A DNA stretch of 64,000 nt. Source: Eledone cirrhosa (Eukaryota). Each line of letters opens with the position of its first letter. Positions within the stretch are counted from its first letter, which is position 1. This document shows, in pieces, positions 25,877 through 60,113 of this stretch. The DNA is taken from contig OZ024742.1 of assembly GCA_964016885.1 (NCBI GenBank), positions 206,336,001-206,400,000 on the forward strand, in the 5' to 3' direction. A program made the position numbers and the translations under genes. The notes under the pieces are model-generated. The model saw only the letters and a program-made list of their open reading frames with translations, did not search any database and was not told where the DNA came from.

Positions 25877-26191
25877 ATATATATATATATATATATATAT
25901 ATATATATATATATATATATATATATATGTGTGTGTGTGTGTATATATATATATATTAGTTTTAATATAGATGAGATTCTACAGTACTAGAACTGTTTCA
26001 TTCTTTAGAAATCATCAAAACTTTTATACTCTGCAATGTATTGAGTACCTTACTTACTGTGGTTACCTCCGACTCAACCCGGAATAACGTATATATATAT
26101 ATATATGTATATATATATATATATATGCATGTATATATATGTATATACATATATATATATATATATATACACACGCACACCATTATATATT

Positions 26192-26706
26192 ATCATCATC
26201 TTCATCATCATCATTTTACCTCTGACTTTCCCTGCTTGCAAGGGTGGGACGGGTCTTATTCAGCACAGCATCTCTCCACTTGTCACGGTCCTTCTTCATC
26301 TCCACCGTGAGCTTCAACGATCTGAGGTCTGTTCTCACCACCTCCGACCATGTTTTTCGTGGTCTACCTCTACCACGTCTTCCTTCAACTGGCTTTTCCT
26401 GGCACTTCTTTACCCATCGGTCATTCTCCATGCGCATCACATGTCCATACCACCGCAGTCTCTTCTCTCGCACACTACATTCTATCCCTCTCGGACAGTT
26501 CCTCTCTCAATACATTCATGCTTGGTCATTCACACACATTGATATTGCACATCCAATGGAGCATGCTTGTCACTTTTCTCTCCAACTGTCGCATATCCTC
26601 TGCAGTTGCTGCCCAAGTCTCACTACCATGCAGCATCGCGCTCCTCACACAGGCATCATATAACCGGTCTCTCGTACACAGGGAGAAACCCTTCTTCGTC
26701 AGCAGA
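26192..26706 (-). mobile_element. RTE LINE 3' fragment (copy A family)
   Basis: Encodes REKRLRWYGHVMRMENDRWVKKCQEKPVEGRRGRGRPRKTW; 3' end like 19577-20090. Confidence 0.9.
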
Positions 26707-26724
26707 TAATTATATATTATAATA

Positions 26725-27125
26725 ATAAGTTGACGAGATCAGCATGGATTTCACAGCTAGTACCGGTTTCATCTCAGCATACTCAATAGGTAATGTTAAG
26801 TAAACTCCCAGAGTAGACATATAGTTATTCGCTTTAACTCAACACATGTAAATGGCTCCCTTCAATCTATACCTGAACTCATGTTTCAGCCACACTTAAT
26901 GCAATAGAGTGCACAGCATCCACTGTCTGCATTTATTATGCAACAATCCACAACCGGAACTTGTAGCTTCATCAGCGAATTTTGTTTAATCAATAACCAG
27001 TCGATCAACAGAAATCGATTTCAGTCCTTGCCGGCTATAACTGAATGTGACGGCCTTCACAGTAAAACTTTAGCAACTGAAATCCCTATGTGTCATCACA
27101 ATACTGTCAGTCGATTGGCCTGAGA
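26725..27125 (-). mobile_element. pLTR/retrozyme-like remnant with decayed hammerhead(s)
   Basis: Minus strand: CTGATGA-AGCTACA...(about 75 nt)...TGTGGCT-GAAA-CATG at about 26877-26985 with the cleavage site lost; 3' TACTC/GAGTA hairpin at 26779-26815. Confidence 0.5.
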
Positions 27126-27194
27126 ATTATATTTATTTTTCTTAATTAAATTTAGCTTTTATATCATATTTTATTTTATTTTATATATATATAT

Positions 27195-27515
27195 ATATAA
27201 AGAAAAAAAAGATGAAATCGAAAATGCAACTGGAGTCTTATTTAAAAAAAAATATATATATTTATTTGGTTCCTTTACCGGTTTCGCAGTTCTTCTGCTT
27301 TTCAAAAGAAGAGTTGAGATGGAGGGTCTGTGGTTTTTCTCACATCAACTCTACTTTTGAAAAGCAGAAGAACTGCGAAACCAAATAAATATATATATTT
27401 TTTAAAAAATAAGACTCCAGTCACATTTTTGATTTCATCTTTTTTTCTTTATACATTCACTCGTGTAGGACACCTCGGTTAATTTTCATTTTGTAAAAAA
27501 AATCTCGCTTTCTAA
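27195..27515. mobile_element. Inverted-duplicated pLTR-like element (same family as 39170-39380) between (TA)n tracts
   Basis: 27195-27317 is the reverse complement of 27346-27452, followed by a roughly 60-nt tail; near-identical to 39170-39380. Confidence 0.85.
27271..27310 (-). ncRNA. Minimal type I hammerhead ribozyme, U3-A8 core variant
   Basis: TTCTT-TTGAAAA-GCAG-AAGAA-CTGC-GAAA-CCGG-TA-AAGGA: stems I and II pair, stem III is palindromic (ACCGGT), GUA site. Confidence 0.75.
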
Positions 27516-57121: not shown

Positions 57122-57577
57122 TTTACCCTGTAAACATACCGTGTTTCTTTAGAAATGCGAAATTTCTATACATATGTGTATACAGCTATGAATGAAGAAT
57201 TTCTACTAAAGAATTTCTATAAAGCTATGCTCGAAGCGAAATCCTATTTCTTTTTTATTATAAGTTGAGCCAACTTATGCAGCTTCATATGCAAATGAGA
57301 TTAATCACCTCATTTACACAGACGAGAAAACTATATATTCTCGACTGCTCTCAAGTCCAGCAGTCGCAGGTGTGGGAGGAACCGTCCTGATGAAGACCAG
57401 TCAAGTCTGAAATGCATAGACGGTTGTCCCCCTTGCTTCTGCTGGACACTAGCAGAGGGCGTTAACCCCGGTGTTTGCATAGCTACGATTTCCTAAATGT
57501 TTACCCTGTAAACATACCGTGTTTCTTTAGAAATACGAAATTTCTATGCATATATGTATCAGCTATGCTTGAAGCTA
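57122..57577 (+). mobile_element. Retrozyme-like tandem (about 1.2 monomers, period 378 bp) containing a hammerhead
   Basis: TTTACCCTGTAAACATACCGTGTTTCTTTAGAAAT at 57122 and 57500; non-coding; (TA)n flanks; further partial copy at 60114-60262. Confidence 0.8.
57380..57425 (+). ncRNA. Minimal type I hammerhead ribozyme
   Basis: AACCGTC-CTGATGA-AGAC-CAGTCAA-GTCT-GAAA-TGCA-TA-GACGGTT: perfect 7-bp stem I, 4-bp stem II, palindromic ATGCAT stem III, AUA site. Confidence 0.92.
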
Positions 57578-58227
57578 TATATATATATATATATGCAGTG
57601 GCGGACTGGCCAGGTTCCCCCATGGCAAGTGGGCCCTGGGGGGCCCGCATTAGCATTTCAGAAGCCCACTGTAGTATTTTAGGGACCAATGCTTTGATTA
57701 AAAAAATACCTGAAGTCTAAGAGAAAGAAGAACATTTTTTTAAAAATAAGTAAAACGATTAAGCAAACCATTTGGTCAACCAATTCCCCAGGGAATTAAT
57801 AGAAACCAAGATACATGATAGTGCAAATAGCTGGAATCAGTGGTTGTACATTCTACTAAATTTAAAGCTTAGTGTATTCATTTATTCATGTAAACATATG
57901 TATATAGACACACACACACATGCATATATATATTAAAACACTTAATGACGGAATATATATATATTCCGTCATTAAGTGGTTTAACTCCTTCAACTCCAAA
58001 AAAGCGAAGTTCACGCAATTCGACATTGTAGATTTTACCCGTCGATCTCAGAGACCTTGTTAAACAAAGCGTTGGACTTTCCTACCACTTACGCTACCGT
58101 CCATGTTTTAGACAGGGAAATCATCGCACACTGCCGGAAAACCCTCCTCTTCAACAACGGAGAAACCTGGGCAAAAAAGTCAACCACTTCAAAACTATTC
58201 GACGTCTCCGTGGGATCGTTTGGCAGT

Positions 58228-58371
58228 GCTGACGTATGCGACTTGGTTGGTCTATTTATTTTAGACATTTTACATGCTGACGCATGCGACTTGGTTGGTC
58301 TATTTATTTTAGACATTTTACATGCTGACGCATGCGACTTGGTTGGTCTATTTATTTTAGACATTTTACAT
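58228..58371 (+). repeat. In-frame 48-bp triplication inside the PLE RT
   Basis: AD(V/A)CDLVGLFILDILH x3 at 58228, 58276 and 58324. Confidence 0.95.
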
Positions 58372-59649
58372 GTTAGATTCCCGGACTTCCACGCGGGAAT
58401 ATACCGTGACGGCGGCCTGACCTTATCGAGCCAGAAAATTGGTCACGGCCTGGACCGGTTTAAAAAAGACTTAACTTCTACCTTTAATGAGTTAGGACTT
58501 AGGATAACAGTAGCTACTAACCTCTCTAGCGTAGATTTCTTAGACATTAATTTAGATCTTCGTACACATACCTTCAGACCGTTCCATAACCTTATCGAAA
58601 AACTTAATTACATTCACAAGGACTCATGCCACTCTCCTACTGTTTTTAAAAACTTTGTAAATAATATCAGTACTAGATCTCTAACCTCTCCTCTAATAAG
58701 GCTATATTTGACAGAGTGGCACCCTACTATAACACGGCGTTAGCTAACAGCGGCTTCTCGCAACCTATCACTTACTCCTCCACTAACACCAACAGAAATA
58801 AGAAAAGAAATCTTAACAATAGATATACTATCTGGTTCTCTGCTCCCTTCTCACTCAACGTTAAAACTAATGTAGGAAAAAAATGTCTAGCCCTCTTAGA
58901 TAGACACTTTCCCATAGGTCACAAATACTGTTCCATCTTTAACAGACACAGAGTAAAACTAGGATACTCCTGCACTAAGATTATGAAGACCCACATCACC
59001 AACAGTCCTAAGAGTGGCACCCCACCAGGATGTTCTTACCGAAAGCCTGAAGCTTGTCCCCTTCAACAGCAATGCAACACACCCACTATAGTTTATGAAA
59101 CTGTGGTCACTTCCAACCGACCAAATGAACAACAGGAGGTCAAATCCTATGTGGGTATGGCGGAGGGCCGATTTAAGGAACGCTTCCTGAACCATCAGTC
59201 GACCTTTAGGTACCCAGAGAAATGATCGTCCACGAAACTCGCGAGCCACATATGGTCTCTAAAGGACCCAGTCGTAGACTACTCCATCCAATGGAAAGCT
59301 ATTACTAAGTCCAAGCCATACGCAAGGGGAAATCGTCTTGTGGACTGTGCATTGAAGAAAGGATCAATATCCTGAGAAGTTTACGTAATAACGATTGCCT
59401 AAATTCAAGGAATAAACTTTTTTCGCGCTGCCCACACGTCTGGAAACACCTATTACATAAATACAAAGCTCCAGATTGACTAACATCAACAATCTATAAC
59501 ATTCTCAATGACTTGAATAATTGATTCCGGATATCTACCGTTAACTCCCTTACATCGATCTATCGTGGGTTTACCTCGCCCAGGAGAAGTGACTGTTTCT
59601 GCGCATGCGTATTCGTGCGGTTGTTTTTTTTTCGTACAACTTCATTCAG

Positions 59650-59692
59650 ACCAAGCTGAGGATCCGCATAAGGTGAAACATATGTTCTCGGT
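59650..59692 (+). ncRNA. Minimal type I hammerhead ribozyme in the PLE 3' pLTR
   Basis: ACCAAG-CTGAGGA-TCC-GCATAA-GGT-GAAA-CATATG-TT-CTCGGT; palindromic ACATATGT stem III, U.U at the base of stem II. Confidence 0.8.
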
Positions 59693-60113
59693 ATGGTGAA
59701 CTAGCAGTTGTGAAACTACTACTACCCAGCTCGTCCCATGGACTGAGTGCTCTACTACTACGGATATAACCCTCCAACGTTCTATTATATATATACAATG
59801 TCAATTAGATCCCTAGGGATTTTTGTACAAGTTAAAAACATGTTCTGTATACATATATAGAAATCTATATATACACACATGTACATGCACACATACACGC
59901 ACTCCCATATATATATATATATACACACACACACACATATATATATATCACATATATATATATCAGTGGTGCGACGAATTAAAATTTATTAGACATATTA
60001 CAATTGTTCCTCCGTTTCTTATGTAATATCATACTCTGCTCTGTAAGAGCATCCAGTGCTCAAACGGCCCACCGCATACGGACGCTTTAAGCATCCCACA
60101 CCAATTATATATA

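Follow-up and report, generated by a model that had tools for sequence, protein, structure and literature searches.

The 64,000-nucleotide stretch of Eledone cirrhosa DNA analyzed here (the window; assembly GCA_964016885.1, contig OZ024742.1, positions 206,336,001 to 206,400,000) carries a coding Penelope-like element (PLE) at positions 57985-59787, in which a reverse transcriptase (RT) domain is followed by an endonuclease (EN) domain of the GIY-YIG type. The initial annotation had noted a stem-loop of the form YACTC-N16-18-GAGTRC, lying a short distance before a (TA)n tract, at the end of this element and at nine further sites, and all ten stretches were indeed present (Table 1). Analysis of these sites and their relatives indicated that the stem-loop is one of a pair of hairpins, that element copies end mostly 3 to 6 nt before one or the other of the two, and, judging from sequence comparisons, that the paired hairpins probably serve as binding sites in the RNA and thereby fix the position at which the RT starts.

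The motif was counted in the whole genome, in the window, and in unselected DNA. Genome-wide, the forward pattern matched 94,466 times, compared to 3,393 times for the reversed pattern; within window positions 15500-64000 the strict N16-18 pattern occurred 4 times, compared to a mean of 0.22 in 300 shuffles (maximum, 3). When (TA)4 was required 30-60 nt downstream, 58,783 forward and 3,153 reversed-pattern matches were found, both being forward-strand counts since the reverse-strand figure was inflated by overlapping matches. In 800 kb of DNA chosen regardless of the motif, 33 of 51 matches lay 25-70 nt before (TA)4, whereas none of 20 reversed-pattern matches lay less than 70 nt before it and random positions gave about 1% per 10-nt bin of distance. 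The proposed positional enrichment was thus upheld. A microsatellite is present near each of the ten sites, but at 35-61 nt rather than the 35-56 nt first given. One additional match, at 50752-50778, has no (TA)n in its surroundings and is a chance occurrence.

Seven of the ten sites were traced to Hydra-clade PLE families (A, B, C, and D), and families E, F, and G are without a traced open reading frame (ORF). The family A protein has 54,514 candidate places listed genome-wide. The families of 33039 and 40546, of 38474 and 53230, and of 47424 and 60033 are the ends of other Hydra-type coding families; B, C, and D are 34-45% identical to A where measured. ORFs of families A and C, inspected directly, are single, with the RT preceding a C-terminal GIY-YIG EN, and family C retains uninterrupted ORFs of about 720 amino acids in head-to-tail 3,542-bp units (loci L303 and L309). 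Near full-length copies are flanked by (TA)n and contain a hammerhead together with the motifs RWR, DKT, CxCx5C, CxxC, and CxH; RWR and DKT (in place of DKG) are present in loci L141 and L309. In an alignment of homologs, RW[KR] was found in 42/47 and DK[TS] in 46/47, the former within a conserved RxRW[KR] helix, and the CxCx5C linker and the EN CxxC/CxH motifs were each found in 46/47 by a loose pattern, as well as in families A and C. The family A pseudo-long terminal repeat (pLTR) contains a predicted hammerhead core, and the UUGANAA core of family C may be read as the U3-A8 hammerhead variant treated in part of PMC4209133. The insertion target is (TA)n in family A copies, in unselected DNA, and at mapped ends. 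By domain order and motifs, the carriers therefore appear to be Hydra-clade PLEs as that clade is characterized in the relevant passages of PMC8557442. Pfam did not recognize the PLE proteins, and a protein structure model (predicted local distance difference test score of 89) gave telomerase RT as a best but weak match (E value, 4e-8; TM score, 0.28) that was uninformative on the RNA site.

These assignments alter two parts of the initial annotation. That the elements are unrelated was not supported, as seven sites belong to Hydra-type families and the family of 53664 (family E) has the same twin-hairpin layout. Nor was a Naiad parentage supported: the EN of the traced families is C-terminal and hammerheads are present, whereas Naiad elements have an N-terminal GIY-YIG domain and no canonical hammerhead. 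A selenoprotein reading of the in-frame TGA at 59223 was rejected because relatives carry Arg there. For family G, 20 loci were examined and an ORF was linked to none. The window also holds, at 62649-63146, a remnant of another Hydra-type ORF.

A scan of metagenomes with a single protein found no relatives, and an alignment-based scan found 77 loci with related ORFs. Forty-eight of their leaders had sufficient upstream DNA; by a rule using sequence only, 27 had two hairpins, 2 were parsed as having three, 13 had one, and 6 had none, and the same rule was satisfied by 5/48 reverse complements and 2/370 ORF windows. Grouped at 70% identity, these leaders form 28 families; one or more hairpins occur in 24 of them, and two occur in 17. 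From the presence of two hairpins in the relatives' leaders, the window families were expected to have another hairpin beyond their long end, and this was found genome-wide, with 1,505 matches compared to 316 in the control (a count that includes tandem arrays). Families B, C, D, and E and several others showed it in their read-through copies, and it was degenerate in family A. A tandem array of about 40 copies of a 63-bp unit containing family C hairpin 1 was observed at G000:C1:81256625-81259215 (loci L257 and L258).

The structure of the motif was redrawn as UA-N3-6-RCUC-Y…R-UH-GAGYRC, in which a basal stem of 4 bp is followed by a 3' bulge that starts with U and by an upper stem that covaries. 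In the 800 kb of unselected DNA, an upper stem of at least 3 pairs above a 1- to 2-nt 3' bulge was present in 31 of the 33 positioned matches compared to 4 of the 18 others, and the structure is therefore a single bulged hairpin, RCUC-Y…R-UH-GAGYRC. The pairing described earlier as an inner hairpin in the loops forms the upper stem of this one hairpin rather than a separate structure. The leading Y does not pair consistently, and the register given for 59723-59750 was wrong; its first two nucleotides are the upstream TA, and the true stem is at 59729-59750, with a 12-nt inner part and a 1-nt bulge.

Covariation was examined in 40 metagenome hairpins, one per family and position, selected on sequence only. 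Base pairs were counted in scripts that anchored both hairpin ends, as MAFFT failed to anchor both stems, and relatedness in the shuffle tests was handled by the 70% identity cut only. Upper pair 1 was paired in 40/40 hairpins (28 C-G, 11 U-A, and 1 U-G; shuffle mean, 32.3), pair 2 in 29/37 (shuffle mean, 15.4), and pair 3 in 20/26 (shuffle mean, 10.8), each value being reached in 0 of 10,000 shuffles; the signal for pair 4 was marginal. With the 2-nt-bulge register, 89/103 cells were paired, compared to at most 36/115 in any other register. Basal pair 1 is G-C in 39/40 metagenome hairpins and A-U in 10/13 families of the present genome, and the inner length of the hairpins in metagenome leaders ranges from 5 to 24 nt. 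A UA whose A falls between -4 and -9 precedes 38/40 hairpins, compared to 17-19 in control windows, with a peak 4-6 nt upstream of the stem.

To relate the hairpins to insertion ends, read-through references for five families (A to E) were used for end mapping, with many loci picked via the motif. Among 304 mapped matches there were 79 short ends, 120 long ends, 11 ends elsewhere, 40 read-throughs, and 54 unclassified matches. Family A copies have two end positions, one 4 nt before the hairpin and one about 38 nt past it; thus, the hairpin lies inside an optional PLE tail. In tandem copies this tail continues into the following ORF's leader, which makes the "3' stem-loop" at the same time the feature of the unit that lies farthest 5', and the order of features is hammerhead, hairpin 1, hairpin 2, ATG. 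Across the five families, 199 of 210 mappable microsatellite-bounded ends fell no more than 12 nt before one of the two hairpins, mostly 3-6 nt. The modal gaps before hairpins 1 and 2 were 4 and 5 nt in family A, 5 and 3 nt in family C, and 4 and 6 nt in family B; in family E the modal gap before hairpin 2 was 3 nt, with short ends scattered. Short ends directly before the hairpin recur in eight families. Contigs assembled from one sequencing run, which may represent the source sample, break into (TA)n at both family C end positions (62 and 290 contigs), and 4 contigs of a second run, coded as another organism, break at the family C long end. Clusters F10 and F13 contain apparent solo tails, in which hairpin and tail follow directly on (TA)n or another repeat without an upstream element.

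In unselected DNA, 41 of 80 classified ends were short and 39 were long. A fixed distance between hairpin and a single 3' end, as proposed initially, was therefore not found: the hairpin is absent from about half of the ends, and the 35-61 nt correspond to the distance to the next putative start site. The distance that is fixed is the 3-6 nt from a hairpin to the end just upstream. The hairpin-to-hairpin spacing is 68-90 nt in the present genome and 55-83 nt in the relatives.

The position of these ends bears on what the hairpins do. Hairpin 2 ends 13-49 nt before the N-terminus of the ORF, and all traced carriers belong to one clade, so that descent accounts for part of the sequence identity; the hairpins could thus be signals in the 5' leader for translation or a promoter, or inherited sequence, with the nearby ends due to an AT-rich leader. 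This is very improbable, because the ends are sharply modal at a fixed hairpin offset even though spacers differ between families, the position of the UA peak is locked, and the upper stems covary while the flanks diverge. Alternatively, the hairpins might act in a single-stranded DNA integration intermediate that the GIY-YIG EN resolves by cutting the TA just upstream, in which case the ends would be cuts. The end positions and the TA peak fit cutting equally well, tails are attributed to EN-mediated resolution in a passage of PMC8557442, and, according to work cited in PMC11167929, the EN of D. virilis reportedly cuts its own element only when the tail is there. We consider this unlikely all the same, since the sense-strand wobble in the 40 hairpins (5 G.U, compared to 0 A.C) excludes first-strand complementary DNA (cDNA) and suits RNA, the variable inner length argues against a site in duplex DNA, and the in vitro PLE data in the corresponding part of PMC11167929 place RT starts at the tail borders.

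Fold-back insertions provided a further view of the two ends. Long and short ends were combined in 53 of 56 classified fold-back pairs, and among unselected fold-backs one long and one short end occurred in 23/25 (P ~ 1e-5), making the tail an optional, usually one-sided extension. This pattern would be unexpected from a mixed pool of precut RNA, and it weighs on the possibility that the hairpins cause the RNA to be cleaved, or its 3' end to be formed, 3-6 nt upstream, with the RT then priming conventionally from the resulting 3' ends. Such processing would give the same geometry; moreover, hammerhead cores start 69-98 nt before hairpin 1 in 16 families, and Anolis RNA-seq read ends coincide with start sites in the data covered from PMC11167929. 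In experiments described in that source, however, internal initiation by the Anolis protein takes place on a template that is not cut, and the product is the same with hammerhead mutants; we regard RNA processing as quite improbable, a little more so than cutting by the EN.

The feature order, the two end positions, the upstream UA, the covariation, and the pairing of a long with a short end in fold-backs are all observed, and RT start sites set by the hairpins probably connect them as follows. The PLE protein would bind a hairpin on a read-through transcript; the nicked (TA)n target would pair with the UA just 5' of the hairpin, and cDNA synthesis would begin there. A start at hairpin 1 would give the short end, and a start at hairpin 2 would copy hairpin 1 and the spacer, which would then appear as the "tail." If the two target strands were primed from different hairpins, the tail would be one-sided. 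More speculatively, the bulge may hold an arginine in a pocket like that of TAR, and both hairpins may be engaged simultaneously by a dimer of the protein. An extended version, which we hold to be possible but doubtful, is that UA and a TAR-like arginine-sandwich bulge make up a portable tag of about 30 nt, that two copies are docked by a protein dimer so that each RT primes one nicked (TA)n strand at its own UA, producing a fold-back with a one-sided tail, and that the tag suffices to place an internal RT start on any RNA. A link between the TAR/7SK-like core and the RxRW[KR] helix is speculation. As for the conserved cis RNA signal envisaged in the initial annotation, a conserved, covarying, and position-locked PLE structure was borne out, whereas Naiad parentage, unrelated carriers, and the geometry of the stem-loops of long and short interspersed nuclear elements (LINEs and SINEs) were not.

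Several results weigh against start sites set by paired hairpins. Folding is weak, with z scores of 0.0 to -2.0 in 8/8 folds; hairpin 1 is able to cross-pair with hairpin 2 in predicted folds, and the basal stem has a probability of at least 0.5 in only 30/40 hairpins. In the end mapping, the 54 matches out of 304 that could not be classified and the choice of many loci through the motif limit the agreement. Family D long ends lie 10-12 nt before hairpin 2 (7/7), where the read-through is itself microsatellite-like, and family A long ends are sharp though hairpin 2 is degenerate or absent. Family G shows a single end type, about 50 nt past the second visible copy, with none before either copy; for family F, the read-through search gave 0 matches and an ORF was not found. 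The 6/48 leaders without a hairpin fail the strict rule, although several of these show recognizable variants by eye. In metagenome contigs, same-family ends fit in only 6/10 cases, a count that excludes cross-family hammerhead matches (12 of 22 rows, one repeating a counted end). Finally, the motif was found in 0/24 flanks of two other PLE types in the genome, one of which has two ends of its own, separated by about 55 nt; the signal is therefore specific to the clade.

Table 1. Hairpins and associated features of the window, by family
Feature	Family	Positions	Strand
Frameshifted ORF remnant of a putative Hydra-clade PLE (RT, CxCx5C linker, C-terminal GIY-YIG)	A	57985..59479	+
Hammerhead core, 73 nt upstream of hairpin 1	A	59656..59679	+
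TA where short-ended copies stop, 4 nt before stem	A	59723..59724	+
Hairpin 1, corrected register (1-nt bulge, 4-bp upper stem)	A	59729..59750	+
Optional tail, ~63 nt, terminating at (TA)n	A	59725..59787	+
Hairpin 1, within short fold-back insertion ~32914-33114	C	33039..33064	+
Hairpin 1, one mismatch; partner inverted arm 39432-39810	C	40546..40571	+
Hairpin 1	B	38474..38500	-
Hairpin 1; short-ended inverted arm adjoins, to ~53295	B	53230..53256	-
Hairpin 1; short-ended inverted arm 49069-49282	D	47424..47450	-
Hairpin 1, one mismatch	D	60033..60059	+
Hairpin 1, G-C basal variant; short-ended inverted arm 53318-53410	E	53664..53691	+
Hairpin 1, compact variant; fold-back with one short end	F	26028..26048	+
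Hairpin, exception: single end type seen	G	26779..26814	-
Degenerate upstream motif copy	G	26875..26910	-
Degenerate candidate beyond the initial ten, 49 nt before (TA)n		60378..60409	-
Degenerate candidate beyond the initial ten, 63 nt before microsatellite		33308..33334	+

The window copies are mostly truncated fold-back stubs. The hammerhead at 53036-53060 (+) is on the strand opposite to the 53230 (-) hairpin; counted from this hammerhead, (TA)n is reached 83 nt on (53036-53118, +), a spacing typical of a short end. A near-perfect fold-back between microsatellites at 48466-48565 has TACTC and GAGTA on both arms. The end of a PLE of the motif-less, two-ended type lies at 60910-64000 (-), with a hammerhead at 61133-61161 and a tail apparently able to form a long-range stem. 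Two further elements belong to one retrozyme-like family, in which the canonical hairpin motif was not seen: a hammerhead element at 57119-57574 (+) that has direct repeats of 79 bp and lies between (TA)n tracts, and a stub at 60114-60262 (+). The rest of the window includes a 15.4-kb satellite (1-15439) with a 21-bp consensus and higher-order repeats, and, at 19543-36555 and 49996-51864, what we take by resemblance to be several RTE-like LINE remnants and an L1/Tx1-like ORF.

PLEs are the closest mobile relatives of telomerase RT. Across 20 to 28 protein families, the short covarying double motif predicts the two insertion ends with an error of no more than a few bases, and it defines the boundaries of Hydra elements for annotating tens of thousands of stubs that lack an ORF; if sufficient, it would be a compact means of steering target-primed insertion from an internal position in an RNA. 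The Hydra clade, the tail, fold-backs, and internal initiation are already known. The choice of internal start site and the one-sided tail are stated as open in a passage of PMC8557442 and are partly answered in PMC11167929, as far as the covered text goes. The stem-loop may be undescribed, as initially suggested: no description of the twin hairpin was found in Rfam or in the PLE literature searched, most subscription papers and Repbase notes being outside that search. The word "hairpin" is absent from the main text of PMC8557442 and the motif is unmentioned in its passages covered; neither is it described in the portions covered of bioRxiv 10.64898/2026.07.22.740005, PMC13282606, PMC4209133, PMC3846280, PMC5737381, and PMC7583470. 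Rfam gave no family at the window hairpins or in five full-length loci, with only subthreshold matches, mostly to microsatellites.

The 3' stem-loops of stringent LINEs and their SINEs are found 5' of the site of priming, and every insertion receives a copy. The present hairpin resembles them as a small cis RNA structure that would confer template specificity on an RT, but it lies 3' of the proposed start, is paired, and is missing from short ends; with the hairpin lacking from 41 of the 80 classified ends in unselected DNA, the analogy drawn initially does not extend to geometry. A second resemblance, offered as a lead only, is to the arginine sandwich of HIV-1 TAR and 7SK (as presented in part of PMC6189040), with a paired purine, a bulged U, and then G-C, A-U, and G-C pairs in circularly permuted form. 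The TAR counterparts given there are A22, U23, G26, A27-U38, and G28, with C37-U40 opposite; the U and GAG in this pattern match were part of the hairpin search rule. Unlike in TAR, there are 2 nt in the bulge (1 nt in family A), and the opposite side bears the closing loop.

Compared to the PLEs of the Hydra clade, which have a C-terminal EN, as described in the passages covered of PMC8557442, the present families share the domain order, the RWK-like, DKT, CxCx5C, CxxC, and CxH motifs, the hammerhead, the (TA)n target, and inverted truncated copies. The family A unit is 2,577 bp, and the family C unit, at 3,542 bp, differs from the "generally under 3 kb" given for the clade. The published consensus Hydra-1_Ajap begins 2 nt before hairpin 1 and carries both hairpins, and Hydra-2_Ajap has one hairpin at its end. 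The closest functional comparison is with Poseidon of Anolis carolinensis, whose protein, according to the sections covered of PMC11167929, starts reverse transcription internally in vitro at two sites that coincide with genomic ends and bracket the tail; these starts are an in vitro precedent for the internal start proposed here. Both systems have two ends around an optional tail past a hammerhead, an AT-rich target, and a stem-loop at the start region. In those sections, Poseidon RT starts lie inside an AC-rich stem-loop, the sites are said to be nonhomologous to the cut DNA, and a cross-family motif is not given; the RNA of its figure S1 is, by eye, without RCUC/GAGYRC. Unlike in Poseidon, with its tail of 30-40 bp, a separate copy of the conserved hairpin is found immediately 3' of each end here, with a UA matching the target, and the hairpins are 55-90 nt apart.

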